64,000 bases of DNA from a virus (IMGVR_UViG_3300028591_000179:10773-74772); one strand, 5' to 3'; counted from the first letter of the stretch, positions 6,222 to 62,065 are shown. Notes: generated by a model not told the origin, from the sequence alone. Numbers and translations: made by a program.

Positions 6222-7448
6222 TTATTTATTCCGCTCTTTTTCTAAAAATTCAATTAAATTTTCATATTTAATATTATCAATATACCTATCATAATTCGGT
6301 TTTTCTTTAATACCTTCAAATACAGCAAAATAAGTATTAGGATATTCTTGATTTACTTCTTTTGCAAATATTTGTTTAGCAATTTTTTCAGATTTTACAG
6401 ACTCTAAAATAGTTTTATATTTTTCTTTACCTATTTTACCATACTTTTCTAATATATTTTTATATTCAATTAAATTTGCTTGTATCTTTATTATTCGCTT
6501 ATTTAATTCTGGAAAAATTTGTAAAGCATCATCTATAGTTCCATCTCTCATACCATTTAAAATTTTTGCATCAGTAGTATCAAACATATTACGATAACCT
6601 TTTAATCGTATATAATCAACACATTTAATTTTGACACGATTAAAATATTTATCTACAACAACTACACCTTCATCCTTATCACCTTGATAACTATTACACA
6701 ATTTTAGTACTTCATCAATATTATGTAAATCAAAATATTTTACAGTATTAAAATTATTTATAACTGGAATTAAAGATTTTGCAGTATTTAAATCATACTC
6801 ATTTTGACTAGATAAATTACGACAGCCTAAATATATCAGATCTGTTTTTGGATTATCAACTAATATTCTTAATTTAGGAGATATTAATTCAAACATATAA
6901 GTACAATTATAAATAAAGTCATCCATATTAACTTTATTTTTATTTAAGCAATAATCAATTAAATCTTGAATAGTTACACAGTCTTTTGTTTCAATCTCAT
7001 CATATTTAGAAGGTATTTTAATTATTTCAGATGCCTCTAAATTTGTATTCCATCCATTATTAGTTACCCAAAACCATTTATTATCATAATAAAATAGTTT
7101 AATCAAAATACCATCTACTTTCTGCTCAACTAAAGCAGATTTCCAATCTATTTCTGGACAAAATTCTTGACCCATGTTACCAAATTTTGTAAATGGAGCA
7201 CAAACCATATATGGATTATTAGGATCCTTTATAGAAACAATACAACCTCTACAAAGTCTTACATATTCATCATTAAAATCACTAAATAAACCGTCATATG
7301 ATAGCATATATAATTCTGGATATAATAAATTATTATCCTTATCTTTAAAAGGACATTGCTTAATCTTAATTAATCTTGGAGCTTCTTCTAAAAAAGCTTT
7401 CCAATTTGAATTTGTTTTAATAAGATCTAAAAGTATATCATATATCAT
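6222..7448 (-). CDS. rnl1: RNA ligase, T4 Rnl1-like
   Basis: CRG...PFTKFGN, motif I EQKVDG, FELISP, DEGVV and VKIK nucleotidyltransferase motifs. Confidence 0.85.
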   Translation of the reverse strand: MIYDILLDLIKTNSNWKAFLEEAPRLIKIKQCPFKDKDNNLLYPELYMLSYDGLFSDFNDEYVRLCRGCIVSIKDPNNPYMVCAPFTKFGNMGQEFCPEIDWKSALVEQKVDGILIKLFYYDNKWFWVTNNGWNTNLEASEIIKIPSKYDEIETKDCVTIQDLIDYCLNKNKVNMDDFIYNCTYMFELISPKLRILVDNPKTDLIYLGCRNLSSQNEYDLNTAKSLIPVINNFNTVKYFDLHNIDEVLKLCNSYQGDKDEGVVVVDKYFNRVKIKCVDYIRLKGYRNMFDTTDAKILNGMRDGTIDDALQIFPELNKRIIKIQANLIEYKNILEKYGKIGKEKYKTILESVKSEKIAKQIFAKEVNQEYPNTYFAVFEGIKEKPNYDRYIDNIKYENLIEFLEKERNK

Positions 7449-9632: not shown

Positions 9633-9883
9633 TATAATTTATCTCCCATTGCTAAAATTACTAATTTATAATTTTGATATACTTTATATAAAGATTCAAA
9701 TTCAGATTTTAATTCTTCATGTGAATTTAATAGAGCTTCATATAAATTTTTCCAATTTTCTTCCTCTATACTTTGTGCTGTTGGTATAGTATGAGGATAT
9801 AAACTACTAAAATCTATATTTGTTAACTTTTGACAATGTGCAAATGCAAATGATAAATCTAAATCAAATTTATCTGGACCCAT
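9632..9883 (-). CDS. Hypothetical protein
   Basis: GGAGG RBS; coupled. Confidence 0.5.
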   Translation of the reverse strand: MGPDKFDLDLSFAFAHCQKLTNIDFSSLYPHTIPTAQSIEEENWKNLYEALLNSHEELKSEFESLYKVYQNYKLVILAMGDKL

Positions 9884-11828
9884 AATTTAATTCCTCCTTT
9901 AAATCTTCAAGAGTACATATTCTAACATTGGCTTTTCTTGCTTTTTCTATTTTGCTAGAAGTACCCATAATATCTTTTACTACTAAACAATTTACATTTT
10001 TATTCCATTTATCTGAAGCATTTCCTCCATTTTTATTAATATAATTTTCTAATGCTTTGTCACGAATACCAGAAAAACATATATTATATTTAGCACAAAC
10101 TGTTGATTCTATTTGATTTTTTGGATTTATAAATTCTATACCATAACTATGTAATTGCATATGAATTTTAGTCATATACCATAAATGTTCATATTCTAAA
10201 TATTGACTAATTCTAGACTCTCCAAATCCTTCAATATTTTCTAGTTTTTCTTTAGTCATTCCTTCTAAAGTATTATATTTATTCCAAACCAAATTTAATA
10301 CTCTTTCACCAATATCTGGGCCAAAACTACCACAAGCGGCGGCGAATTGTGTCTCTATAAAGGTACTTTTTTTGGCTTTTAAACTAGCTTCTATCTTTTT
10401 TCCATTCTCACCTATTAATTTTGTAATTTCACCTTCTGGAAGCTCATAAATACGGTATGGATGATCGTATAAATTTAAAAATTGACTAAAAGCATCATAT
10501 ATCTTTACACAGTTTCCATATCCTAATTGTTCAATATCAAGTTTTTCACCAAAATACTCTAAACGTCTTATACCCATTTCTCTAGCATATTCCGGAGTAT
10601 CATTTGACCAAATATATACTAGATCTACACCTTCTATTTTAGTTTGACATTTTGGTAAATTATAATTTTTAGATGGTATTAATACTTCTTCTAATTTTGG
10701 AATTACTAAACCGGCTCTTTTAAATTTAATTTTAGCACCGATACCACATTTTGTTTTAATTACATTTTCATAATTATGTGCTGTAATATTAGTAATTTTA
10801 GCACCAGCAACTTCTACTGGTTCAATTTCTAATACTGGAGTAAAAATACCCCAACGACTTATTTGCCAATTTATATTAGTAACAATAGATTCAGCTATAT
10901 TATCATGAATACCTAATTTAAATTTTCTACTACATTTTGGATTTATAGTTCCTCCAACAAATCCATCTTCAATATTATCTAATTGTGTAAGAATAATACC
11001 ATCTAACTCATAATCAGAAAATTTAAGTCTTGTTTTAACTAAATCAATCATATTTTCATCAGTTAATGTTTCGGCTGACATAACTTGATAAAAAGGTACT
11101 TTAAACCCTTCATTTTTTAAGAATTCAAATGCCTTTAATGTACCTTGATCTTTAGAAGTCCAATAAGCTACAAATTCTGTTTGTTCAAAAATATAAGGTT
11201 TAGTTTCTTTACTATTTAATGCTCCTGCTATAGTATTTCTACCATTTTTTTGTTTTTTGCCACTAACTTGCTCTAATAAATTTAATATTGTTGGTATTGC
11301 AATTTTTGGAAATAATAATTCACCTCTAATTATTATTTTATCTTTATAATTTATCTTTTTAGGAAATCCTACATTTTGAACATGTCTCATAATATCTTTA
11401 CCTTTGGTTCCATGTCCGCGTGTAGCAGCAATAGTTAACTCACCATTTTCATAAGTAAGAATTAATGAACATCCATCTAACTTATCTGAAATTAAAAATT
11501 GTTCATGACCCTTAATCCATTTTTCTAAATCACCTTCTTTTAATTCTTCCATACTACCCATTGGTATTTCATGAATAATATCTTGACCATAACCAGTATT
11601 ATCAGAGGTTAACTTAGTAAAAAATTCATCATTTGGCCATATTATTTTAGCTTTATTATAAATATTATCATAAAACCAATCGTCCACAACATTTGAATCA
11701 AAATTTTCTGGATAAAAATTTAAAGTGTTGGCTAAAATTTGCCAATCATTATCAGTTAAAATGTAAAGATCACCTTCTGAATACGCTTTATTACATTTTT
11801 TTAATAACTGTTTAAGTTTTTCATTCAT
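9870..11828 (-). CDS. ligA: NAD-dependent DNA ligase
   Basis: KLDG adenylation motif, ATRG.G..G.DI, IRGE, RN..AG, ELDGII, OB-fold WQISRWGIFTPV, C-terminal BRCT. Confidence 0.93.
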   Translation of the reverse strand: MNEKLKQLLKKCNKAYSEGDLYILTDNDWQILANTLNFYPENFDSNVVDDWFYDNIYNKAKIIWPNDEFFTKLTSDNTGYGQDIIHEIPMGSMEELKEGDLEKWIKGHEQFLISDKLDGCSLILTYENGELTIAATRGHGTKGKDIMRHVQNVGFPKKINYKDKIIIRGELLFPKIAIPTILNLLEQVSGKKQKNGRNTIAGALNSKETKPYIFEQTEFVAYWTSKDQGTLKAFEFLKNEGFKVPFYQVMSAETLTDENMIDLVKTRLKFSDYELDGIILTQLDNIEDGFVGGTINPKCSRKFKLGIHDNIAESIVTNINWQISRWGIFTPVLEIEPVEVAGAKITNITAHNYENVIKTKCGIGAKIKFKRAGLVIPKLEEVLIPSKNYNLPKCQTKIEGVDLVYIWSNDTPEYAREMGIRRLEYFGEKLDIEQLGYGNCVKIYDAFSQFLNLYDHPYRIYELPEGEITKLIGENGKKIEASLKAKKSTFIETQFAAACGSFGPDIGERVLNLVWNKYNTLEGMTKEKLENIEGFGESRISQYLEYEHLWYMTKIHMQLHSYGIEFINPKNQIESTVCAKYNICFSGIRDKALENYINKNGGNASDKWNKNVNCLVVKDIMGTSSKIEKARKANVRICTLEDLKEELNYGSR

Positions 11829-16258: not shown

Positions 16259-16525
16259 ATGTCTAGATTCAGTAAAATTGTTAAAGCAAAATTAAAAGAA
16301 GAACTAACCATAAATCCATTAGTACAGGAATTAAATACAATGCATGAAAAAATTGATCAGATGCAAGAAACAATAATTGAAAAATATTCCAGTGCTAATT
16401 TTGATAGAGAAAATCATAGAGCTGAGTATTATAATGAAGTAACTTCTGCATTATCAGATGCCAGATTAGCTATTTCTAGAGCAAGCGATTATTTAAATGC
16501 TTTAACTGAGGATGAAGTATTTTAA
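16259..16525 (+). CDS. Putative internal head protein with capsid-targeting-like leader
   Basis: MSRFSKIVKAKLKEE leader; AGTTCT at 16223. Confidence 0.5.
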   Translation: MSRFSKIVKAKLKEELTINPLVQELNTMHEKIDQMQETIIEKYSSANFDRENHRAEYYNEVTSALSDARLAISRASDYLNALTEDEVF

Positions 16526-19644: not shown

Positions 19645-20364
19645 TTAATATTTATTTATACGTAACATTGCATTAGTTAAATTAATATCTTTTATTTTAT
19701 AAATACTTAAGTTTGAAAGTAAATTTGTATCTGTATATACTGTGTTATAAAAATCAATATTTAAATATTTTAATTTATTCTTTAATTCTCTTTTAAAACC
19801 TTTTAATTCATCTGAATTAAATGCAATATGAGTTGAATTTAAAGCGCCAAATATTCTTATTACACCCTTCATTCTTCCTTTAAAATAGTATATTAAATAA
19901 CTAACGATTTTAAAACTTAATTCAAATTGTTCAAATGCTTCATCTATATCTTGATCGGTAGATTTTTTAAGTATTTTATTTATATAACTTGGTTTTAAAC
20001 ATAAAAATCTATTATCATCTATTGTTTCTATTTTAAATCCTGATATATCACATTTATATTCTTTTAACCAAAATAAAATTTCTTTTGGTTTAGTAATCAT
20101 TTTTAAATTTACTTTATTATTTTCATTTATAGATTTATTACATAATGCACAAACTAGTCTATTATTAGATTCATTATTTTTATCATAGAATAATTGTAAG
20201 CAAGTAAGGTCATCAAAACCAAAATATTTATTTATTATATATATTAAAATAATTAGAGCCTTAAAACTCCAAGTTATCTTATTTTCATTTTTATTTTTAT
20301 TTGATTTTAAACAAGTGTGTAAATTACACCATGTATATTCATAACTATTATTCCAGTCTGACAT
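19645..20364 (-). CDS. Hypothetical protein, paralog of 26052-26747
   Basis: Shared ITKPKEILFWLKEYKCDISGF / ITNPQTILFWLTEYEIDTSGF and NAMLRI end. Confidence 0.65.
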   Translation of the reverse strand: MSDWNNSYEYTWCNLHTCLKSNKNKNENKITWSFKALIILIYIINKYFGFDDLTCLQLFYDKNNESNNRLVCALCNKSINENNKVNLKMITKPKEILFWLKEYKCDISGFKIETIDDNRFLCLKPSYINKILKKSTDQDIDEAFEQFELSFKIVSYLIYYFKGRMKGVIRIFGALNSTHIAFNSDELKGFKRELKNKLKYLNIDFYNTVYTDTNLLSNLSIYKIKDINLTNAMLRINKY

Positions 20365-21130: not shown

Positions 21131-21415
21131 ATGTCAAATAAATATAAAGAAGATTTTATAAAGAAGGTAAATAAATTATTAAGTGAAGGTGAAGATTATT
21201 CTTGGATGGATGATGACGATGAATTACCTCAAACAGAATATACTCCAAAACAAGAAGAAGCTATTGATATGTTTGATGAATATTTACAAAAATTAAATGA
21301 AGGTCTTATTTCAAGAAAAAATTTTGCTCAAATTGCTAGTGAATTATACAATAATTTACCAGAATATGATTATCTTAGAAGTAAAGATGCAAAATTACCA
21401 CAAAAGTATAATTAA
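21131..21415 (+). CDS. Small acidic putative internal head protein
   Basis: MSNKYKEDFIKKVNKLLSEGED leader; AGTTCT at 21090. Confidence 0.5.
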   Translation: MSNKYKEDFIKKVNKLLSEGEDYSWMDDDDELPQTEYTPKQEEAIDMFDEYLQKLNEGLISRKNFAQIASELYNNLPEYDYLRSKDAKLPQKYN

Positions 21416-21439: not shown

Positions 21440-22549
21440 ATGGGTTTATTTGTTGGTCAAACTGAAGTAAGAATTAATCGTAATGATTCATATGGATCTT
21501 TAATAAAACCACAAAAAGTAATTGAAATTGAAAATTGGGTAAATTCTAAATTAGAAAGTAATGGCATTTTAGGTAATGATACAGAAGCATTATGGATTTC
21601 TGAGCATGACTATTTTGAAAATTATAACTTTTATGAATTAATGGATGAAAATCTTCAATATAATGTTTTTTATTTAGATACCTTAGAAACAAATAAAGAT
21701 ATACCAATTATTTTTTATACACCAAAACAAGTCCAACTAAATGAATTTGTTATTGCTGGAAATTCATTAGATGATAATAATTTAATTTTTGAAATATATG
21801 GAAGTAATGAACCTTTTGTAGCAGATTACGAACAAGATTTATCTATTGATTATTTTGCTTCTAATGATTCTTTATGGACAGAAATTAGTTTTAATAAGAT
21901 TGTTACAAATGAAAATGTTAAATTTACTTTTAATAATGAAAATTTTTATCATTATTATAAAATAGTAATTCGATTAAATGCATCAGTAGAAACTACATTT
22001 TCAGAATTTAGAATGACTGGTAATAATATAAAAATGCCTCCTACCCCTATGGAAATTTATTTAAGTAATCATGAAGTAAAAGAAATTAAAAATACTTCTG
22101 ATACAGCTACTTCATCAACAGAAGTAGTAGTATTTAATGCTTCTACCGGTGGAAAGGGTAATTTTAGTGGAGTATGTAGTAATTTAGTAAATTTAGAAAC
22201 ACTTATAATTAAAAAAGTTAGTGGTTCTGGTTGGAATCATTATCAAAATGCTTTTAATAATGATACAAAATTAAAAAATGTTATATTTAATGGCAGTATG
22301 ACTATGAGTGGGTCTGGACATTTAACTGGAATATTTAATGGATCAAATAATATAGAAAAAATTTATATAAATAAAAACTATAATCCTCCAGCAAATGTTA
22401 TGAATCAAATCTCTTCTAAAAATTGTATAGTATATACCGATTATACAAGTGAATCTGATAATTATATAAATACCTATTTTTCTGTAAATAAAATAGTTTA
22501 TAATTATTCTATAGATGATTTCTTTACATTATTAAATAATGAATTTTGA
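21440..22549 (+). CDS. Putative tail/receptor-binding protein with LRR (BspA-like) C-terminal repeats
   Basis: N-terminus similar to 18937 gene; NLVNLETLII...AFNNDTKLKNVIF...IFNGSNNIEKIYI repeats. Confidence 0.45.
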   Translation: MGLFVGQTEVRINRNDSYGSLIKPQKVIEIENWVNSKLESNGILGNDTEALWISEHDYFENYNFYELMDENLQYNVFYLDTLETNKDIPIIFYTPKQVQLNEFVIAGNSLDDNNLIFEIYGSNEPFVADYEQDLSIDYFASNDSLWTEISFNKIVTNENVKFTFNNENFYHYYKIVIRLNASVETTFSEFRMTGNNIKMPPTPMEIYLSNHEVKEIKNTSDTATSSTEVVVFNASTGGKGNFSGVCSNLVNLETLIIKKVSGSGWNHYQNAFNNDTKLKNVIFNGSMTMSGSGHLTGIFNGSNNIEKIYINKNYNPPANVMNQISSKNCIVYTDYTSESDNYINTYFSVNKIVYNYSIDDFFTLLNNEF

Positions 22550-22956
22550 TTTCTTTCTTTAACTTTATCATAATTTTTATCAAAATATTTATAATCATCA
22601 TTTTGCAAATCTCTATATTTGTAATTTTGATTTTTATCAAAATGATCACGATAAAAACCTTTAATCCTATTATGATCTGGATTAGTTCTTAAATCTTCTA
22701 TATAAGCTTGACTATCTTTTATTTTATTTAATAAATTTATAATTTTTTTATTTTCAGGATATTCATTTTTTATTGTTACAATTAAATAATAAGCCTTTCC
22801 TAAAAAACCTAAAGCTTTACTTAAATTTTCTTGTTCATTTTGGAGTTCTTCATTATCAATATCGTAATTTAAAGCTTGCATTCTACTAGGATTACCATCA
22901 TCTTCTTCTAATTTTTCACAAGCCTCTCTAAAAGCCTTTATATATTTATTAACCAT
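22504..22956 (-). CDS. Putative internal head protein (late, - strand)
   Basis: MVNKYIKAFREACEKLEED leader; AGTTCT on - at 22995-23000. Confidence 0.45.
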   Translation of the reverse strand: MVNKYIKAFREACEKLEEDDGNPSRMQALNYDIDNEELQNEQENLSKALGFLGKAYYLIVTIKNEYPENKKIINLLNKIKDSQAYIEDLRTNPDHNRIKGFYRDHFDKNQNYKYRDLQNDDYKYFDKNYDKVKERNQNSLFNNVKKSSIE

Positions 22957-23171
22957 TTAATGATTCCTTTTAAATTATTATTAATATGTTTATTAGAACT
23001 ATAAAAACTTTTAATTACCTGTTATATTTAGTATTCATATTTATATTCCCATTAACAATTCTAACTCTTTTACAAAAGAATACATTTATATACTTAATTC
23101 TACAAATAAAAATTACTAAAAATATTTAAAGTTCTTATGTATAATAATAAATATATCAATGAAAATAAAAA

Positions 23172-24014
23172 ATGTCAAAGTTTAAAAACATAATAGAAAA
23201 TATATTAAAAGAGCATAGCATCAATTTAAATGAGGATGCTAAAAAAGATTATGCTTTAATAAAAGAAGCAAAGGTTGTTTACAATATGTTTTTAAAAGAT
23301 TTACAAAAAAAGATGAAATATGTCTTAGAAGAATTAAAATCACAAGAAGATAGTGATTCTTGTGAAGTAAATGATTTAATTATTAAACTAAATATTTATG
23401 ATTATAACTCTACATGTGGTAGTTATGATCCTTTTATGAATAGTATTCAATTATCATTAAATTCACTTAAGAAAAAAACTAAATTAAAAAATGTAGAAAT
23501 AAATCCTGATACTGTTAATGAATCTATAATATATACTATTTTAAATTCTAATTTCACTAAAGAAGTTTTTTTACACGAATATCAACATTATAAACATAAC
23601 CAATACAGATATTCAAATCGAGATTATGAATCGATTAAATTTCCAAATAGTGATACTTATTATACTTATAGGCATGATGCTAATGAAAACAATTCTTATA
23701 CAATGGAAGATTTAAATAATATAATTAAACAATTTAAAAAAGAAATAAACAACAATTTATCTAAAAACAATATAAAGGATAAACTTAATTATTTTATATC
23801 CAATTTATATAATCAATATATTCATACTGATATAAATCCAAAAAAAGTACCATATGATTCAAAGTCATCAAATTTAAGTCAATTCTTCTTTACATATAAT
23901 AAAAAAAGATATATTAATCGAATTTATAATTTACTTTATTATTTATTTATAGAAGATAATATAACCAGAGCAAGAAAAATATATAATGAAATAAAAAAAG
24001 ATATATTAGAGTAA
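23172..24014 (+). CDS. Leader-bearing HEXXH (zincin-like) protein; paralog of 26940-27791
   Basis: MSKFKNIIENILKE leader; FLHEYQH motif; ENNSYTMEDLN. Confidence 0.6.
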   Translation: MSKFKNIIENILKEHSINLNEDAKKDYALIKEAKVVYNMFLKDLQKKMKYVLEELKSQEDSDSCEVNDLIIKLNIYDYNSTCGSYDPFMNSIQLSLNSLKKKTKLKNVEINPDTVNESIIYTILNSNFTKEVFLHEYQHYKHNQYRYSNRDYESIKFPNSDTYYTYRHDANENNSYTMEDLNNIIKQFKKEINNNLSKNNIKDKLNYFISNLYNQYIHTDINPKKVPYDSKSSNLSQFFFTYNKKRYINRIYNLLYYLFIEDNITRARKIYNEIKKDILE

Positions 24015-24021
24015 TAGATAA

Positions 24022-25407
24022 ATGTCAAGGTTTAGAAACATAGTAGAATCAATTATATATAATAGTAATATTTTATTTGAATCTGAGCAAAAAATAAATT
24101 GGATTTTGTCTCAACCTAAACTTGTCCAAGCTTTAGAAAATAGAATTCAAAATGATTCTAAAACTCCAAATAATATAACAGCTAAACAATTATTAAAAAA
24201 TTTTGATAATAGTTCAATTGTAATTGGAAAATTTTTGCCTTGGGTTGTAAAAATGTATTCTAATAATGAATTTGAATATACTGATTTAGGGTTAATAAAT
24301 AACTATCTCGGAAGCTTTGTAAAAAATTCAAACAAATTAGAAAAAAAAGATATAAATCAATATAAATCTTTAGAAGAATTAAATAATGCTTTAGAAAATA
24401 TAAAAGATGTTAAAGGATCTCGCGAAGTACAAAGAGATGCTAAATCTGGTGCAGAAAAAATTTATGAAGACAATAAATGGATTATACTTATCCCGCACAC
24501 TAAAGAAGCCGCAATACAATATGGTAAAAATACTAAATGGTGTACTGCAGGAATAAATAATAATATGTTTGACTATTATAATGAAGATGGACCTTTATAT
24601 ATTCTTATAAATAAGCAAAATCCTAATGAAAAATATCAGTTTCATTTTGAAACAAATCAATATAAAGATGTAGAAGATCGAGAAATAGATTTAAAATCTT
24701 TTTTAGAAGAAAATCCAGAAATAAAAATTTTTTTTGCATCTATTAAAAATCTTGATAAGACTGATATTAAAAATTGGATATGGCTTAATGGGACTAAATT
24801 AAATTATAATGATTACTTTGAAGAAGTTAAAAAACATGGTTTTGTATTAAAATATGTACCAGAAGAAGTAAAAGATTATAAAATGTGTTTAGAAGCTATT
24901 AAACAAGCTGGATATCGTTTAGAATTTGTACCAGAAAAATTAAAAGATTATAATATGTGTTTAATTGCAGTTAAAAGTAAGGCTACTGCATTAAAATATG
25001 TACCAGAAGAATTTAAAGATTATAAGTTATGTTTAGAAGCTGTTAAATCTGGAGGTTATATGTTAATAGATGTTCCAGAAGAATTTAAAGATTATAAGTT
25101 ATGTTTGACAGCTGTTAAATCTGATGGTTGTGCCATAGTAGATGTACCGGAGGAATTAAAAGATTATAATATGTATTTAGAAGCTGTTAAATCTGATGGC
25201 TATACATTAGAATGTATACCTGAAGAATTTAAAGATTATCAAATGTGTTTAGAAGCTGTTAAAAGTAAAGGTGAAGCATTAAAATATGTTCCAGAAGAAT
25301 TAAAAGATTATAGAATGTGTTTAACAGCAATTAAAAAAAATAATAGTGCATTAAATTATACATCAAAACAATTTAAAGAAAAACTTAAACAAAAAATCGG
25401 AATATAA
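24022..25407 (+). CDS. Leader-bearing protein with PcfJ-like core and DUF4116-type repeats
   Basis: MSRFRNIVESII leader; YGKNTKWCTA...GPLYILINK...KYQFHFE; seven 24-aa [VI]PE..KDY repeats. Confidence 0.65.
   Translation: MSRFRNIVESIIYNSNILFESEQKINWILSQPKLVQALENRIQNDSKTPNNITAKQLLKNFDNSSIVIGKFLPWVVKMYSNNEFEYTDLGLINNYLGSFVKNSNKLEKKDINQYKSLEELNNALENIKDVKGSREVQRDAKSGAEKIYEDNKWIILIPHTKEAAIQYGKNTKWCTAGINNNMFDYYNEDGPLYILINKQNPNEKYQFHFETNQYKDVEDREIDLKSFLEENPEIKIFFASIKNLDKTDIKNWIWLNGTKLNYNDYFEEVKKHGFVLKYVPEEVKDYKMCLEAIKQAGYRLEFVPEKLKDYNMCLIAVKSKATALKYVPEEFKDYKLCLEAVKSGGYMLIDVPEEFKDYKLCLTAVKSDGCAIVDVPEELKDYNMYLEAVKSDGYTLECIPEEFKDYQMCLEAVKSKGEALKYVPEELKDYRMCLTAIKKNNSALNYTSKQFKEKLKQKIGI
24830..25370 (+). 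repeat. Intragenic ~72-bp tandem repeats encoding DUF4116-like units
   Basis: Recurrent ccagaagaatttaaagattat-like units; boundaries approximate. Confidence 0.75.
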
Positions 25408-25409
25408 TA

Positions 25410-26045
25410 ATGTCTCAATTTAAAACTATTATAGAAAATATTTTAAAACAACATAATATTACTTTAACCGAAGCTAAAGTAATTAAAATATCTTTTGATG
25501 AATTGGGTAATGATTCTGGTTATAGTTATGAAGATATAATAACTTATAATATGCCACCATATTTACCGATATATAAAAATCCAACGCAATCTGAATTTTT
25601 TGATATTTATAATCATTCTATAGAAAAAGATATACGTGGATTAATTGTTAATGATGATATTTATATATGGGATAGTTATTGGGCATTACATAATAATATA
25701 TGGCAATTATTAAATATTGATCCAAATATAAATACTTGTGCTTTTTTGTATCATGATAATAAGTTAGAATTTGGTGATATATTAAATAAAGATGGTATGT
25801 ATATAAAAGATATAAACTTAGCTAAATCCATAATGCTTAATAATAAATGGTTTGTAGATACTTTTGGTAAAAATTTAATTAATAATGCCTTACCACATCA
25901 TACTTGGGAATTTGAAGAAGATACTATTAAACAAGGTAATTCTTGGGTAAATAAAGGAAAAGAAGGTACTCATGGTACCTTCAAAACTAAAAAACAAGCT
26001 GATACTCAAAGAAAGGCTATGTTTGCAAATGGATATAAAGGCTAA
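25410..26045 (+). CDS. Leader-bearing putative internal head protein with basic C-terminal module
   Basis: MSQFKTIIENILKQHNITLTEAK; ends WVNKGKEGTHGTFKTKKQADTQRKAMFANGYKG. Confidence 0.55.
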   Translation: MSQFKTIIENILKQHNITLTEAKVIKISFDELGNDSGYSYEDIITYNMPPYLPIYKNPTQSEFFDIYNHSIEKDIRGLIVNDDIYIWDSYWALHNNIWQLLNIDPNINTCAFLYHDNKLEFGDILNKDGMYIKDINLAKSIMLNNKWFVDTFGKNLINNALPHHTWEFEEDTIKQGNSWVNKGKEGTHGTFKTKKQADTQRKAMFANGYKG

Positions 26046-26051
26046 ATCATA

Positions 26052-26747
26052 TTAATTACCTGTTATACGTAACATTGCATTTGTTGTATTTATATCAGTT
26101 ATTTTAAAAATATAAATATCTTGACTATTAAGTCTTTCATCATAACCTTTAGAATAAAAATCAATATTAATATATTTAAATTTATTTTTTATCATTCTAA
26201 TATCATCTGCTGAATTATATACAATATAAATATTATTTGAATTACTATAAATTTGAAACGTAGAAAGAACTTTTTTATAAGTCATAAGTATATAATTCAT
26301 AAGTTTAGAAACTAATTCAAAATATTTAAAAGCATTTTCTATATCTGTATTAGTAACTTTATGTAATATTTCATTAATATATTTTGGTTTTAAATATAAA
26401 AAATCTTCACCATCTAATTGTTTAATTTCAAAACCAGATGTATCAATTTCATATTCGGTTAACCAAAATAAAATAGTTTGTGGATTAGTAATAACATTTA
26501 TTTTAAGATTACCATACTCATCTTCATATTCATCATAAAATTTACAAATAAAATCACAACAATTATTATCATATAGTAAAACTAAATTAGAATCTTTTAA
26601 ATATATATTTATTAGAGATGTTAAAAAATAAATAATTCTAATACTATCTCTTATATCATTATAATTATTATTAGATTTTATATAACTAGATTTAGAACGA
26701 CAGCTATATGTAAATTTATATTTATAATCATTATTCCATTTAGTCAT
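26052..26747 (-). CDS. Hypothetical protein, paralog of 19645-20364
   Basis: See paralog; ends NAMLRITGN. Confidence 0.65.
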   Translation of the reverse strand: MTKWNNDYKYKFTYSCRSKSSYIKSNNNYNDIRDSIRIIYFLTSLINIYLKDSNLVLLYDNNCCDFICKFYDEYEDEYGNLKINVITNPQTILFWLTEYEIDTSGFEIKQLDGEDFLYLKPKYINEILHKVTNTDIENAFKYFELVSKLMNYILMTYKKVLSTFQIYSNSNNIYIVYNSADDIRMIKNKFKYINIDFYSKGYDERLNSQDIYIFKITDINTTNAMLRITGN

Positions 26748-26939
26748 TTTAAATTCCTTTCTATTAATATATATAATAGCATATAAAAAGAAATAAAGTA
26801 AAGCTGTTTATTCATCTTTTCATTCTTGTAATAGAAATACTAAATAATAAAAGTCTACTAAATAAAATTCCTTAAAAGTTCTAATGTATATGTATATTTT
26901 ATCTTAAAAAACATAGTTAACATAATTCAAAAATAAAAA

Positions 26940-27791
26940 ATGTCAAAGTTTAGAAATATAGTAAAAAACATATTACAAGAAAATAATATTGTTATTAATG
27001 AAGATGCTAAAAACGATTATGCCTTAATAAAAGAAGCAGAAGTAGTTTATAATATGTTTTTAAATAAGATAAAACAAGATAGTGAATATGTAATTAATTG
27101 GTTAAATAAATATGGAGATGTAGTAATATTACCTCCTAATAATAATAATGAGTGTCCTTCTCTCAAAATATGTAGTTATAAAGGTCCTTCTGGCGAATTA
27201 GCTTTTTGTGATGAACTTGGTATAACTTTATATTTAGAAGGCTTATTATATAATAGTTGGTATAAAAAATATTTCTTAAATCATAATGTAACAATAGATA
27301 TTTTATTAAAAGCTCTTAAATTACCTCAAATTAAATCTTCTTTTTTACACGAATATCAACATTTTAAATATCATACAACAGATAAAACTAAAGATTTACC
27401 ATATAAAGTAAATTGGAAAAAAGATTACAATAAATATAGACTAAATCATAATGAAAATAATTCTTTTACTATGGAAGATTTAAATCATTTAATAACAGAT
27501 TTTAAATTTGAATTAAAACATAAAAATATTGATCTAAATAATAAAAAAGAAGTATTAAACTATTTATCTCAATATATACAAAATTTATATGCTCTTATTG
27601 GAATGAAATCAGCATACGATGGACATAGAATAACAAATTTATCAGAACAACCTATGTATACAAAAGATACACATATGGAAAAACAATACTATAAACGTAT
27701 ATACAATATATTATATTATTTATTTGTAGAAGATAACATAAATAAAGCAAGACAAATATATAATCAAATAAAAAAAGATATGCAAGGGTAA
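26940..27791 (+). CDS. Leader-bearing HEXXH protein; paralog of 23172-24014
   Basis: MSKFRNIVKNILQE leader; FLHEYQH; near-identical 5' DNA to paralog. Confidence 0.6.
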   Translation: MSKFRNIVKNILQENNIVINEDAKNDYALIKEAEVVYNMFLNKIKQDSEYVINWLNKYGDVVILPPNNNNECPSLKICSYKGPSGELAFCDELGITLYLEGLLYNSWYKKYFLNHNVTIDILLKALKLPQIKSSFLHEYQHFKYHTTDKTKDLPYKVNWKKDYNKYRLNHNENNSFTMEDLNHLITDFKFELKHKNIDLNNKKEVLNYLSQYIQNLYALIGMKSAYDGHRITNLSEQPMYTKDTHMEKQYYKRIYNILYYLFVEDNINKARQIYNQIKKDMQG

Positions 27792-27800
27792 TAATAACTA

Positions 27801-28472
27801 ATGAGTATATTTAGAAGTATAGTAGAAAATATATTACAAGAAATGACTTACCCAAGTAATTTTGATTTACAATATTTTTCAACTATTCCTACATTTAAAG
27901 ATCGTATTAAATATTGTAAAGACAGATTAAAACTTATTGGAAACGGTACATCACGTATAGCATTCCAAGTTGATGACAAAAAAGTACTTAAAATTGCAAA
28001 AAACTCAAAAGGGATTGCACAAAATATAAAAGAAGAAGATTGGGGTAGAAATCAATATGGTTGCTTTGCTAAAATATATGAAGCTGATACAAATAATCAT
28101 ACATGGATAGAAATGGAATTAGCAAGTAAAGTAACTTTTAAAAACTTTATTGAACATTTTGGATTATCTGCAAAATCTTTATTACCTGTATTTGAATATG
28201 TATATAATACCTACACTGATATAAATAAAAATAATAAACTTCCAGAAAAAGAACAAATAGAAGAATTTTTAAAAAACAATATATATAATAAGAAAAATAA
28301 AGAATTATATAATCTTTACCAATATATATTAGATTACCAACCAGATAAATTAACTATAAAAGATTGGTGTCGATCAGATAATTGGGGTAAAGTAAATAGA
28401 AATGGTAAAGAATACTATGTTATTATAGATGATGGATTTGATGAAGATATATGGAATAAATATTATGCTTAA
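27801..28472 (+). CDS. Leader-bearing protein-kinase-like protein
   Basis: IGNGTSRIAF Gly-loop, VLKIAK Lys, QNIKEE helix-C Glu, DWCRSDNWG catalytic-loop-like, VIIDDGF DFG-like. Confidence 0.7.
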   Translation: MSIFRSIVENILQEMTYPSNFDLQYFSTIPTFKDRIKYCKDRLKLIGNGTSRIAFQVDDKKVLKIAKNSKGIAQNIKEEDWGRNQYGCFAKIYEADTNNHTWIEMELASKVTFKNFIEHFGLSAKSLLPVFEYVYNTYTDINKNNKLPEKEQIEEFLKNNIYNKKNKELYNLYQYILDYQPDKLTIKDWCRSDNWGKVNRNGKEYYVIIDDGFDEDIWNKYYA

Positions 28473-28766
28473 AAATTTCAATAAATAAAATCATAATATA
28501 TAAAAAATAAAAAAATATCATACATTACAATCACTAATATGTTCTATATATACATAATATTAAAGTTAAATCTCAATTATATATATTAAAAAACATATAA
28601 TTAAAATGCTACGAGATTTAAACTACTACTCTGGATTATAAGTCAACATAAGTTATATAAGATTAATTAAATTTATTCATCACTGCTTATACCTTCTTAT
28701 ACAAAATAACAAAATCATATATTAAACTTAAATTTTCAAAAAACAAACAAAAGGATATAATATAAA

Positions 28767-30380
28767 ATGTCTATTATGAGAAGAATTGAAAATAACGGTC
28801 TAGTAGAAAAAACTCGTAGCGAAAAAATTGCAAACGGTATTTCTCATGCTGCTAACGTATTACACGAGTCTACTTTAGGTCGTCGTTGCCCTAACTTATT
28901 AAAGGGTATTGAATCAGAAAGCAAAGAAGCACGTTATCAAGCTGCTACTATGGTTCAACTTATCGAAAACATGGCTGAAAAATATGCTAAAGAACAAGGC
29001 GTACAAATCTTACACGAAGATACAGCTGGTACTGCAGGTCCTGCTACTACTGCTGCTACGGCTATGTTGACTCCTGGCGTATCAACTTTAACTCCGCAAG
29101 TAGTTGATATTGTTAATGTTTTCTATCCGCAAATGGTTTCTAATTACATTGCAGATATTCAAGCATTAGATCGTCAGTCTGGTATGATTTTCACCATTAA
29201 GACACGTTACAGTCAAGATGCTGCTGATGTTGAAGCTGGTGACATTGTATTTGAAAAGCCTACTGATGGTACATATACTTCTGAAATGTTGGCATATAAT
29301 CCTGATAAAACAACGATTGAAGAAGATGCTGATAAGAAAGTATACAAAGTACATGCTGAATTGAATAGTGCTTTACCTGAAGATGCAACAGTAAAAGTAC
29401 GTGCTGGTTCGTTTATTGTTCGTGTTGATGGTAAAGAAATTGCACGTGACTATGGTAATGGTTCTGCTAATTTGGATGGTACACAGAAGAAAGCAGAAGA
29501 TGTATATGGTAAGTACAATGTAATTGGTCGTGGTGTATCTGGTACAGTTGATGCTGGTTCTGGTGTTGCTGAATTAGAATTAGATGCTAGTATGTATGCT
29601 GAAGCTGTTGAATTTGGTACATTTACGTTTGAAGCTGCTGTTGATACTGAGACTGATGTTGATTTGATTCGTAAGATTCAGTTCGATATTCCTGCTCAAC
29701 CAGTATTAGCAAAAGAACACCCGTTAATGAGTTCTTACAGTGTTGCATCTTCTTTGATTATGAATGCACACTTAGCAATTGATACTGATGAATTAATTGC
29801 TAACCAAATTGCTGGTACGATTCGTTGGGAACGTGACTTGTTATTGATTCAATCTGTTTATGCTGCTGCTGCTTCTAAGCTTGATTTAACATTTGATTGT
29901 TCTGCAAATGGTGCTAACTTAACATTACAACAAAGATATAGTGCATATACAACAACGATTAGTACAGCTCGTGGTATTATTCAAGAGGTTGCTGGTCGTG
30001 GTACTGTTGAATTTATGATTGTAAGTGCTAAGCAAGGTTTAACAATCGTTGAAAATATTGAAGGCTTTAAGGCTGCTCCTGAAGCTAAGAAACCGATTGG
30101 TCCGTATTTAGCTGGTACATTACGTGAAGGTACAATTGCTGTTATTGCTGTTCCGTATACTAAGACATTACCGAGTGATCAAGTTGTATTTGGTTTCAAA
30201 GGATTCCAACTTGGTGATTCTGCTATTGTTTTGGCTGAATGGATTCCGTTGTACTTCACACCTACTTTCCAAGCTCCGAACTTAAAGAATCATAAAGGTG
30301 CTATGTCTTTCTATGATTTGTTCATGAATAAGCCGGAATACTTGGTTAAAGGTGCTATTGCTAACTTTAACAATGCCTAA
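28767..30380 (+). CDS. gp23: Major capsid protein, T4 gp23-like
   Basis: Q(A)L...SG.IF.I..RY segment; AKEHPLMSSYS...D.D..IA..I..EI-like block aligns with gp23; high-expression codon bias; strong terminator; LHE sites as likely maturation cuts. Confidence 0.88.
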   Translation: MSIMRRIENNGLVEKTRSEKIANGISHAANVLHESTLGRRCPNLLKGIESESKEARYQAATMVQLIENMAEKYAKEQGVQILHEDTAGTAGPATTAATAMLTPGVSTLTPQVVDIVNVFYPQMVSNYIADIQALDRQSGMIFTIKTRYSQDAADVEAGDIVFEKPTDGTYTSEMLAYNPDKTTIEEDADKKVYKVHAELNSALPEDATVKVRAGSFIVRVDGKEIARDYGNGSANLDGTQKKAEDVYGKYNVIGRGVSGTVDAGSGVAELELDASMYAEAVEFGTFTFEAAVDTETDVDLIRKIQFDIPAQPVLAKEHPLMSSYSVASSLIMNAHLAIDTDELIANQIAGTIRWERDLLLIQSVYAAAASKLDLTFDCSANGANLTLQQRYSAYTTTISTARGIIQEVAGRGTVEFMIVSAKQGLTIVENIEGFKAAPEAKKPIGPYLAGTLREGTIAVIAVPYTKTLPSDQVVFGFKGFQLGDSAIVLAEWIPLYFTPTFQAPNLKNHKGAMSFYDLFMNKPEYLVKGAIANFNNA

Positions 30381-30414
30381 TTAAAATTTAGTGTATTAAG
30401 TATAAGCATTAAAA

Positions 30415-30449
30415 AATCCCCTCGGAGGAAATTCGGGGGGATTCTTTTT
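30415..30449 (+). terminator. Intrinsic terminator after major capsid gene (probably bidirectional)
   Basis: aatcccctcgga/ttcgggggatt stem flanked by A and T runs. Confidence 0.9.
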
Positions 30450-30723
30450 ACGTCAAAGAGGTAAATAAACTTTCAAACAACCTCAAATGAAAGGCAAGCA
30501 AATAAACTACCTTAATACCTAATTGCAACAAAAAATATTACTTTAGCTTATCTGTTATCGGTTACAAGATAGTTTGATCAGGAGATAACCAAACGTCTTG
30601 ATAATTATATTTATATCATAATTTTTTTATTTGTAAAGCATTTTTTTTGACCATAGAATCATTTTTTTAATAATATAGTAGGGAAAGCTAAAAAATTAGA
30701 AAGTATGTATTATATGGTCATTT

Positions 30724-30927
30724 ATGGAGATATTTGAAATAAAAAAAGACCCAAATATAAAACCAATTTGGATCTTTGTCGAAGACTTTGACTTGACTAA
30801 TAAAGTTGCCAGAAGAATTATGCAATTTATAGTCGAAGCTGTTGATAAAGAAAAGAAATTGGCTAATGATAATTGTTTGCTTTATCTCTGCTATCTTTTT
30901 CTTTATACATTATTATATATAACATAA
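30724..30927 (+). CDS. Possible small hypothetical protein
   Basis: First 50 aa look protein-like; no clear RBS; 3' part low complexity. Confidence 0.3.
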   Translation: MEIFEIKKDPNIKPIWIFVEDFDLTNKVARRIMQFIVEAVDKEKKLANDNCLLYLCYLFLYTLLYIT

Positions 30928-60448: not shown

Positions 60449-62065
60449 CTAATTATAGATAATGCAACTATAACGTTCTTGATCAATTATTTTATTAATG
60501 GCTTCAATAATTGAATTTTCACCACTCAATGCTGTTTGTAAACATACTGGAGATGAGCCAGAAAGTAAAATACAACCTTTATCATTTATTGTAACTGGTG
60601 TTTGATTTGATCTACTATCAACATTCCACCAAATCAATGTAGGTAAAGTATATCCAGCCTCAAGATATTTATTTCTAATGGCTTCAAAATTTGTACTATT
60701 TTGACCACAATAATCAAATTCCATATCAGAAATAATTATAATTTGTTTTGGCATATCTTTATCTTCTACATTTGCAGATTTGGCTCTTTCTAAAATTAAA
60801 TCAAATACTTTTTGAAGATTTGTATTACTACAATCACCAGTATAAATTGATACTAATTTTTCAGCTAAATTTTTACCTTTAACTTCTTTCCATTTAGCAT
60901 TACTAGAAAAAGGAATAACATAATTACGCCAAATTTCAGATTTATTTCTTTCAGCAATATAAACAGCCAATGACATAGAAACGCACATTGGTAAACCAGT
61001 CATTGATCCAGAAGTATCATTCACAACAATGCCGTTAATTTCTGGCACATAATCAGGTAATGCTTTCCATTGTAATTCTGCTGTTTTATCTTCTTTTGGA
61101 ATACTTGTACCAGACCAAGAGTTATAACAAATATAATTAATATAATCCTTTGCTATATCATATGGATACAATGTATTAGCATTAATTTTTGTTTCACCTT
61201 TTTCAACAGAATTTAAATATTCTGTAAAGCGTTGATTATCATTACGTAAAAAAGCACCTTGCATAGTAGAATAACTTTTAGTATGAATACAATTTTTTGA
61301 ATATTTTAACATTGCATAAGAAGGCAATTTACTATAATCAATACTACTATAATCTTTTCTACGTAGTTTATCTTCAACAATTTCAAGGTCTTTACGCAAT
61401 AAAGTTAATGCTTTACGATATGATCTTGCTGAACCAAATTTACCAGTACTTAATAATGTTTTAGCATATTTTCTAGTAATTTTAGATGAACTATTTTCTG
61501 AAGGCATCCATTTACCTAATAATGAAATAGAAGAAATTTCATTATTTAAGTGATGTTGTAAATCTTTTTCTAATTGATTACCTAAATAATCAACTACTTC
61601 GTCTTTCAAATTAGTGTATAATAACTCCAAAAAGTCATCATATCTGCCATATTCAGCGATTAGATTTAAATTACTCTTTAACCAATCAGTTTCTGCATTA
61701 GCCAAATATTTTAATACAATTCTAAAGACTCTTCTTTCACCTTGACCTCCACGAACATCACGAATATAAAATAAAATACGTAATGCCTTAGTTGGATTAG
61801 CATTAAAAGCATTTACAAATAAATTTAAAATTCTGTTTTCATTCATTTCTCTACGTAAAGCAGCTCCATGATAAAACCAATCAACTATAGCATCTAAAGT
61901 TGAAATATTTGTTAATGCTCCATTTTCTGTGCTAGTTTTATTTGACATTGCATTAATAAAACCATTAGTAGAATTTTTTTCAAACAATGGCTCAGCTTTA
62001 AATACTTTTTTACTAGGCTTATATTCATTATTTGAAAAACCTAAAATATCTGTAAATGTTTTCAT
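60449..62065 (-). CDS. DUF2828-family protein (TROVE/Ro60-like helical domain plus vWA)
   Basis: TENGA, RDVRGGQGERR, EYGRYDD, KWMPSE, INANTLYPYD, MIDAS NDTSGSM, TNLQKVFDLIL, ISDMEFD, WWNV. Confidence 0.85.
   Translation of the reverse strand: MKTFTDILGFSNNEYKPSKKVFKAEPLFEKNSTNGFINAMSNKTSTENGALTNISTLDAIVDWFYHGAALRREMNENRILNLFVNAFNANPTKALRILFYIRDVRGGQGERRVFRIVLKYLANAETDWLKSNLNLIAEYGRYDDFLELLYTNLKDEVVDYLGNQLEKDLQHHLNNEISSISLLGKWMPSENSSSKITRKYAKTLLSTGKFGSARSYRKALTLLRKDLEIVEDKLRRKDYSSIDYSKLPSYAMLKYSKNCIHTKSYSTMQGAFLRNDNQRFTEYLNSVEKGETKINANTLYPYDIAKDYINYICYNSWSGTSIPKEDKTAELQWKALPDYVPEINGIVVNDTSGSMTGLPMCVSMSLAVYIAERNKSEIWRNYVIPFSSNAKWKEVKGKNLAEKLVSIYTGDCSNTNLQKVFDLILERAKSANVEDKDMPKQIIIISDMEFDYCGQNSTNFEAIRNKYLEAGYTLPTLIWWNVDSRSNQTPVTINDKGCILLSGSSPVCLQTALSGENSIIEAINKIIDQERYSCIIYN

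Follow-up and report, generated by a model that had tools for sequence, protein, structure and literature searches.

In bacteriophage T4, proteins are brought into the head by a short N-terminal capsid-targeting sequence (CTS). T4 IPII and IPIII begin MKTYQEFIAE, as read from the T4 genome; these 10 residues suffice to load foreign proteins into the head, with residues 4 and 7 mattering for targeting and residues 8 and 10 for the cut made by gp21 (PMC9026906, PMC3012670). The T7 kinase gp0.7 (T7K; PF27024) disarms many bacterial defence systems by broad phosphorylation (PMC13645617), and phage polyvalent proteins, which are predicted to be delivered with the DNA, carry a set of domains that includes a truncated kinase (PMC5512222). 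Here we analyse a 64,000-nucleotide stretch of viral DNA (IMGVR_UViG_3300028591_000179:10773-74772; hereafter the window), in which an open reading frame (ORF) close to the capsid gene encodes a small protein that appears to combine both themes: a predicted protein-kinase-like (PKL) domain preceded by a leader peptide that is also found on unrelated neighbouring proteins. With a probability of roughly 0.55, we read this protein as a minimal kinase-like enzyme that is tagged by its leader, packaged in the head, cleaved, ejected with the DNA and directed at host targets.

Results

A predicted kinase fold that ends just past the DFG-like aspartate

The kinase motifs that a preliminary description of this DNA had read from the ORF at 27801-28472 (+) are all present, in the order it gave: after the leader MSIFRSIVENILQE (residues 1-14) come IGNGTSR (46-52), VLKIAK (62-67), E78, D188-x5-N194-W-G196 and IIDDGF (208-213). 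An alignment of the window protein with 30 metagenomic homologs (31 sequences, with members down to 27% identity to the window protein) was used as input for AlphaFold2, which modelled the 223-residue protein with a mean predicted local distance difference test score (pLDDT) of 90.2 and a predicted template modelling score of 0.82. When the model was compared with the PDB by Foldseek, only kinase-like matches were returned (APH(2''), methylthioribose kinase, TBK1 and ULK1; E 7e-5 to 8e-4). VIA-align, a structure search independent of Foldseek that covered 48,161 chains, matched ULK4 (Z 9.8), FAK, Mps1, Rio1, Rio2, APH(2''), the RNA kinase Ark1, BRAF, PINK1, Bud32 and NleH1, and also ULK1 and IRE1; the sole non-kinase among the best 50 matches listed was SAICAR synthetase, at rank 9. 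A second look with VIA-align gave Z scores of 8-9.4 over ~130-140 residues, and overall the matches had Z 8-9.8 and a root mean square deviation of 3.3-4.4 Å over 126-141 residues.

The kinase fold that had been deduced from motifs is thus backed by the model, by the matches from both structure searches and by the conservation of the ATP-binding and phosphotransfer residues. By VIA-align's own calibration, Z scores of 8-10 lie only moderately above background, which counts against the assignment; we retain it because the hits are uniform and the conserved residues fall in register, not because of the size of Z. Model residues 19-217 align with known kinases from the first N-lobe strand to the DFG motif (ULK1 8-171; Mps1 515-669; likewise IRE1), and since the phage protein ends 13 residues past D210, its DFG-like Asp, it has the extent of a minimal kinase. 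In the modelled architecture the N-lobe is followed by a region of ~75 helical residues that leads from strand 5 to the catalytic loop, and a DFG hairpin comes after that loop, so that an N-lobe sheet with helix C, helices D/E, a catalytic loop and a DFG strand pair, the elements of the PKL-superfamily fold, can all be recognized. The activation segment and the αF-αI subdomains are absent, as judged from both the model and the structural alignments. In the Atlas, the named clusters that lie closest, T7 kinase, Pkinase and Kinase-PolyVal, are likewise all kinases. It is highly probable that the protein is a kinase-like, nucleotide-using enzyme.

Pfam returned nothing significant for the window protein or for the 31 family members, and no match to Pkinase (PF00069) at E ≤1. 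Membership in the eukaryotic-type Pkinase family was rejected on this ground and for the missing activation segment and αF-αI. A single-sequence search of PDB sequences gave no match for the window protein, and the family profile gave one match only, to the N-lobe of SteC (chain 8jbi_D; profile positions 17-74; E 4.6e-4). The solved SteC construct has no C-lobe, and the match spans only ~58 N-lobe residues.

Catalytic residues are conserved around an unusual catalytic loop

Residues G49, R52, K64, N68, G71, Q74, N75, E78 and G196 are invariant in the 31-sequence alignment, and the Gly-rich loop, β3 Lys, helix-C Glu and DFG Asp expected of a PKL enzyme are all found (Table 1). Residues R52, N68, K70, Q74 and N75 are specific to the family. 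D188 and D210 are 22 residues apart in the window protein and 19 in shorter homologs, close to the ~18 residues that separate the catalytic Asp from the DFG Asp in the canonical kinase PKA.

Several features of the catalytic loop speak against an active enzyme. The His of HRD is missing (neither His nor Arg precedes D188), the loop is one residue over the usual length, D188 is placed within a short helix in the model, and N194 is replaced in 11 of the 31 sequences (by H in 6, S in 4 and E in 1). The extra residue had already been remarked upon, correctly when D-x5-N is set against HRDxxxxN; the Asn itself is not universal in the family. Such a loop would suit a pseudokinase, a catalytically dead fold that serves as a nucleotide-binding or structural internal head protein, and the pseudokinases ULK4, MLKL, JAK2 JH2 and IRAK3 are among the close fold matches. 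We nevertheless regard a pseudokinase as improbable, since the Gly-rich loop, the Lys, the Glu and the two Asp residues persist through all of this divergence in a family of thousands of clusters, which is the pattern expected under selection for catalysis. Judged from the alignment and the model, the protein is probably an active phosphotransferase with an unusual catalytic loop.

A very large family distinct from the T7K and Kinase-PolyVal models

The window protein belongs to phrog_4301, a family listed in PHROGs as of 'unknown function'. A profile search of 1.84 billion representatives retrieved 3852 clusters (50% identity) at E ≤1e-3, 965 of them at E ≤1e-30. The few cultured carriers are the Xanthomonas jumbo phages XacN1 (ORF170; BBA65318.1) and Xoo-sp13 and the Alishewanella phages Slicko01 (WGH49657.1) and Slickus01. 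A distant homolog of 196 residues, annotated as 'putative protein kinase', occurs in Salmonella phage Munch and related phages (hhalign probability 98%). When the proteins were scanned, the XacN1, Slicko01 and Munch homologs were all assigned to phrog_4301. The assignment of this very large family to a predicted kinase fold that lacks a C-lobe, and that is distinct from the T7K and Kinase-PolyVal models, is new.

The preliminary description had likened the protein to T7 gp0.7, and the likeness holds in function only: both are phage kinase-fold enzymes presumed to alter host proteins as infection begins. Comparison by hhalign detected no relationship in sequence (probability 0.3% against the T7K alignment and 0.2% against T7 gp0.7 alone), and homology to the T7 kinase was rejected; T7K is assigned to phrog_2828, a different family. 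PF27024 is absent from the precomputed Pfam annotation of all 45 homologs, and the Munch homolog likewise gave no match to the T7K profile. T7K is expressed early and is not carried in the virion, it has a DPV motif where the family has DDG or DYG, and it possesses a C-terminal shut-off domain, whereas the window protein has no C-terminal domain. PMC13645617 speaks of 'T7K homologues' in jumbophages; these may be different proteins.

Kinase-PolyVal (PF18762) resembles the window family in organization. Each has dropped the C-terminal subdomain of the kinase and retained the residues for ATP binding and phosphotransfer, as is the case in the window protein. Both are fused to or lie beside ART-PolyVal, GNAT, nucleotidyltransferase and InPase domains, with AAA_33 as a further partner of the window family, and for both, delivery along with the phage DNA is predicted (PMC5512222). 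However, the marks of Kinase-PolyVal (a Glu preceding strand 2, a Gln in the final strand of the N-lobe and an insert with His...Asp) are absent from the conserved columns of the window family, in which the domain is mostly a stand-alone, leader-tagged small protein. Membership in Kinase-PolyVal was rejected: PF18762 matched nothing at E ≤10 in the genome that contains the window, nor did it match the kinase loci in the genomes of five relatives, and it is absent from all Pfam scans of family members and fusions. An Atlas feature score of 0.93 to a Kinase-PolyVal cluster is a lead only.

Minimal kinases that lack much of the C-lobe and are sent into a target cell are also known among bacterial effectors, in the Salmonella type III effector SteC and in OspG/NleH. 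The Gly-rich loop and a K-I-x-x-N-x-x-G-I stretch of the SteC N-lobe align with the family profile; SteC differs in its delivery machine and in retaining the αF helix, the catalytic motif HD and an activation segment that contains S379 (PMC13395416).

These comparisons bear on the substrate. The enzyme, packaged or not, might act on a small molecule (an antibiotic or a nucleotide signal) or on RNA, with Ark1-like or APH-like chemistry. The best Foldseek matches are aminoglycoside and methylthioribose kinases, the RNA kinases Ark1/ArkI and SAICAR synthetase lie within one Z unit of protein kinases, the activation segment and the αF-αI substrate-binding subdomain are missing, and relatives are fused to a polynucleotide-kinase-like P-loop, InPase and a poly(A)/CCA-type nucleotidyltransferase. 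On the other hand, the top VIA-align matches and the only PDB sequence match, SteC, are protein kinases; minimal effector kinases without a full C-lobe (SteC, OspG/NleH) phosphorylate proteins (PMC13395416), and NleH1 is matched at Z 6.8; and the protein-modifying domains ART-PolyVal and GNAT are frequent partners. We consider a non-protein substrate rather unlikely and, provided that the enzyme is active, moderately favour a protein.

A leader peptide shared with unrelated neighbours

The 14-residue amphipathic leader contains I-V-E at residues 7-9 and L-Q-E at residues 12-14. In the model it forms a helix of its own (residues 3-14), where the pLDDT falls to ~68-70, and the first 14 residues are not part of the enzyme. 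The consensus MSxF[KR]xI[IV]ExI[LI]xE is found on five neighbouring + strand genes, the kinase gene and four others (hereafter designated by their first coordinate; Table 1), which encode four unrelated bodies. Scored with a leader profile, these five genes reach 45-54, a sixth ORF 29.6 and every other ORF of the contig ≤20, so that sharing of the leader lies far beyond chance. Among the tagged genes, only the products of 23172 and 26940 are related beyond residue 22. Because the Ser codon differs among the copies (TCA, TCT or AGT), the leader is conserved, under selection, at the peptide level. Looser leaders that had been described at 21131 and 22956 (−) were not upheld, as they fall outside the 25 best-scoring N-termini, the lowest of which scores 5.2.

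The products of 23172 and 26940 are 40% identical beyond the leader (E 3e-37). Both carry the HExxH-type motif FLHEYQH[YF]K and fall into no Pfam or PHROG family; from this motif they could be metallopeptidase-like cargo. The product of 24022 has an N-terminal domain with invariant W53, G147, T150-x-W152-C-T154 and Q185 (region numbering), which in homologs is joined to HEAT, ankyrin, WG, NUDIX or GNAT modules. Its AlphaFold2 model (pLDDT 90.7) gave no convincing match in the PDB, the best Z being 5.3 with weak GNAT-like rows. Homologs of the 24022 type adjoin or are fused with the kinase in 5 loci; in one of these (L012) the N-terminal domain and the kinase form a single protein of 1434 residues.

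The arrangement resembles that of T4 IPI, IPII, IPIII and the ADP-ribosyltransferase Alt in that a short N-terminal peptide is common to otherwise unrelated proteins of one phage. Like the T4 CTS, the peptide has (I/L)-x-E at its end and hydrophobic residues near positions 4 and 7-8. The window encodes a gp23-type capsid protein, relatives encode gp21-type (S77) proteases, and the cargo includes host-modifying enzymes, the corresponding cassette of Slicko01 holding an ART. The window leader differs from the T4 CTS in sequence and in length (14 residues, ~21 on three of the neighbours), and a kinase fold is not among the proteins that T4 packages; packaging and cleavage are predicted for the window phage by analogy.

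Related kinases carry other leaders in other lineages

In Slicko01 (L002, 945-6615), eight consecutive genes start MKIxxLYESLLxE, with the kinase homolog last; besides that homolog, the tagged set holds one ART-PolyVal and several uncharacterized proteins that show an HxT...STxR pattern. A third lineage, a large IMG/VR group, bears MRAxEF[IL]xE on the kinase (alone or fused) and on unrelated neighbours at 15 loci, and in two near-complete jumbo genomes the counts of this pattern are 7 and 6, compared with 0 for a reversed-pattern control. All three leader types contain (I/L)-x-E, and the window and MRA types are hydrophobic at about positions 4-7. In three lineages, then, unrelated proteins of the same phage begin with a common peptide that ends (L/I)-x-E, as T4-type CTS cargo does. 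At locus L085, a homolog of the 24022 cargo bears that lineage's own leader, and related cargo therefore wears different leaders in different phages. The repeated pairing of phrog_4301 with lineage-specific leaders that, from their sequences, look like capsid-targeting peptides is new.

Many family members occur in tandem or fused forms (fusion partners are listed in Table 1). Three and four kinase domains are joined by Glu-rich linkers in P0046 and P0047, respectively, leader-like or Glu-ended linkers separate the modules of fused forms, and an ART-PolyVal gene adjoins the kinase homolog in L004. One fused ORF (L074/L075, 1720-3267) has a complete second leader, MRANEFVKE, in its middle. Such linkers and the internal leader suggest either polyproteins that are cut by the prohead protease or read-through in gene calling.

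Evidence for and against packaging

The preliminary description had placed the kinase gene just upstream of the capsid gene, and the ORF indeed ends 295 nucleotides before it. The capsid protein has an N-terminal extension of ~84-105 residues with five (L/I/M)xE sites, the last of which is ILHE at residue 84; the stretch that follows resembles the start of mature T4 gp23. Allowing one gap, the capsid start MSIMRRIENNGLVE (28767-28810) resembles the cargo leader, which, from the two sequences, may mimic the core-binding part of the capsid propeptide. Most ORFs of the window are on the − strand; those of the cassette and of the capsid protein are on the + strand. Since the kinase gene is on the capsid strand and no terminator is predicted until after the capsid gene, where the only terminator-like hairpin on the + strand of 22500-30800 is found, late co-expression of the two is plausible. 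The late-promoter motif GTTCTWWRTAT occurs 2 times against 1.07 expected, and is thus not enriched, and a scan for sigma-70-type promoters was at background; both scans are uninformative in DNA this rich in AT. Metatranscriptome contigs from sheep and bovine gut (X15 and X16; two studies) cover parts of the capsid gene (28755-30281) with 0-2 mismatches. RNA over the kinase gene consists of only short, mismatched, low-complexity pieces, which do not bear on its transcription.

Conservation of the capsid gene as a neighbour of the kinase was rejected: within the flanks of the fetched homolog loci it recurs only in L003, a close relative whose kinase is 67-68% identical, and capsid proximity is therefore weak evidence. 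Along with this limited recurrence, several observations weigh against packaging. No S77 protease or recognizable scaffold was found in the 74.8-kb IMG/VR fragment from which the window derives, which CheckV rates as 31% complete. Homologs in Munch-type phages have no leader and sit among small genes near the genome end, the L004 homolog has a prefix of only MNIINE, and the XacN1 homolog lies among replication and metabolism genes. As these leaderless or short-prefix homologs occur in non-structural regions, packaging is not family-wide; they suggest one enzyme family with two delivery routes, early expression or pre-loading. ORF170 goes unmentioned in the main text of the virion proteomics paper on XacN1, and no proteomics for Slicko01 was found in the literature.

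One explanation for these observations is that the enzyme is active and is not packaged. The N-terminal helix would then serve for docking to a common partner, for co-assembly or regulation of late proteins, or for localization in the infected cell. The enzyme would do its work late, within the cell that makes it, with phage structural proteins or host factors in morphogenesis as examples of its targets. The missing protease and scaffold, the leaderless relatives and the uninformative promoter scans would all fit this explanation. It accounts less readily for three lineage-specific leaders on one enzyme family, each shared with unrelated neighbours, each ending (I/L)xE and resembling the experimentally defined T4 targeting sequence (PMC9026906). 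It also has to be set against the gp21-type protease (Peptidase_S77) encoded in 7 of 7 related kinase-carrying genomes tested, and against fusion partners typical of polyvalent proteins that are predicted to be delivered with the DNA (PMC5512222). We consider a non-packaged enzyme unlikely. Packaging in the virion is strengthened by these same leaders, by the relatives' proteases and by the location on the capsid strand, and from the sequences and the T4 analogy we judge it somewhat more probable than its absence.

Table 1. Positions of features in the window, and domains found fused to phrog_4301 kinases
Feature	Position or locus	Strand	Basis
Candidate capsid-targeting propeptide and prohead-protease site (leader)	27801..27842	+	MSIFRSIVENILQE; shared amphipathic peptide
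Minimal protein-kinase-like enzyme gene (predicted)	27801..28472	+	ATG-started ORF, 223 residues; phrog_4301 match 1.8e-9; AlphaFold2 model and fold matches
Gly-rich loop G47-N-G49-T-S-R52	27939..27956	+	G49 and R52 invariant, S50 and S51 nearly so
K64, β3 (VAIK-type) Lys in VLKIAKN	27990..27992	+	31/31 sequences
E78, helix-C Glu	28032..28034	+	Invariant; within helix 69-78 of model
Catalytic-loop equivalent D188-x5-N194-W-G196	28362..28388	+	D188 30/31, N194 20/31, G196 31/31
DFG-equivalent I-I-D210-D-G212-F	28422..28439	+	D210 and G212 in 30/30 ungapped sequences
Leader-tagged cargo gene 1, 280 residues, HEYQH motif	23172..24014	+	Leader score; paralog of 26940
Leader-tagged cargo gene 2, 461 residues, N-domain with T-x-W-C-T and DUF4116 repeats	24022..25407	+	Pfam DUF4116 7.3e-43
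Leader-tagged cargo gene 3, 211 residues, phrog_3684 of unknown function	25410..26045	+	Leader score
Leader-tagged cargo gene 4, 283 residues, HEYQH motif	26940..27791	+	Leader score
Weaker leader-like N-terminus MSRFSKIVKAKLKE, 88-residue ORF	16259..16525	+	Score 29.6, between core five and background
gp23-type major capsid protein, 537 residues	28767..30380	+	Pfam Gp23 1.4e-21, phrog_138
Terminator-like hairpin	30415..30443	+	Just after capsid gene
Fusion partner ART-PolyVal	L041		
Fusion partner GNAT	L049, L053, L081		
Fusion partner poly(A)/CCA-type nucleotidyltransferase (PolyA_pol)	L067		
Fusion partner InPase	P0076		
Fusion partner AAA_33 / polynucleotide-kinase-like P-loop	P0055, P0052		
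Fusion partner DUF4116 protein type of gene 24022	L012, P0054		

Genome and surrounding genes

From its completeness, the fragment would belong to a genome of ~240 kb. Its guanine-plus-cytosine content is ~20-35%, and near-identical DNA is present in gut metagenomes of sheep, cattle and goat from many studies; the lineage is widespread in metagenomes of the ruminant gut. The − strand genes that were sampled encode ligases, an HNH endonuclease and an ATPase. Among the genes of the window are those for a T4 Rnl1-type RNA ligase (6222-7448), an NAD-dependent DNA ligase (9870-11828) and a Ro60-like RNA-binding protein (60449-62065), all on the − strand, which together make up a jumbo-phage RNA-repair set. 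The leader cassette is broken by a 231-residue ORF on the − strand (26052-26747), whose N-terminus is like that of the ORF at 19645-20364 (−).

Discussion

The fold, the conserved catalytic residues, the sharing of the leader among neighbours and its lineage-specific replacement are supported directly by the analyses above. From these we infer late expression, packaging, cleavage, ejection, catalytic activity and the class of substrate, as parts of the following sequence of events. The kinase would be made late, together with the capsid protein, and its leader would draw it into the prohead core, where a gp21-type (S77) prohead protease would remove the leader after Glu14 (or Glu9). The resulting enzyme of ~25 kDa would be ejected along with the DNA. 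Once in the new host, it would phosphorylate its targets, most likely proteins, at the expense of host ATP before any phage gene is expressed, and the outcome would be take-over of the cell or counter-defence.

A broader proposal is more tentative, and we place it short of an even chance. According to this proposal, phrog_4301 is a very large, previously unrecognized family of kinases lacking the C-lobe, which T4-type and jumbo phages would place in their heads as a matter of routine and inject with their DNA. The kinases would enter the head either singly, each with its own leader, or as tandem or polyvalent proteins with Glu linkers, which the prohead protease would cut apart. They would be the first virion-delivered bacteriophage kinases and would target proteins of host defence or gene expression ahead of any phage transcription, making them a counterpart to the T7 kinase that is loaded in advance.

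The principle behind such delivery is already known from the CTS, the gp21 cut and the injected Alt of T4, from the T7 kinase and from the truncated kinases predicted in polyvalent proteins in 2017. Given the established T4 principle and the predicted polyvalent kinases, the surprise is therefore limited. The availability of two cultured phages in which the pairing of kinase and leader can be tested is new. Because Slicko01 and XacN1 carry homologs, a direct test is possible, and the eight-gene set of Slicko01 provides a ready experimental system.

Phage kinases such as T7K must be expressed before they can act; a capsid-carried enzyme, if this reading is true, would already be at work during the phage genome's most exposed period. 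Should the leader rule hold, sequence by itself would suffice to recognize the packaged cargo of thousands of T4-type and jumbo phages that have not been cultured, and a family of several thousand clusters that is now listed as of 'unknown function' would gain a testable role.

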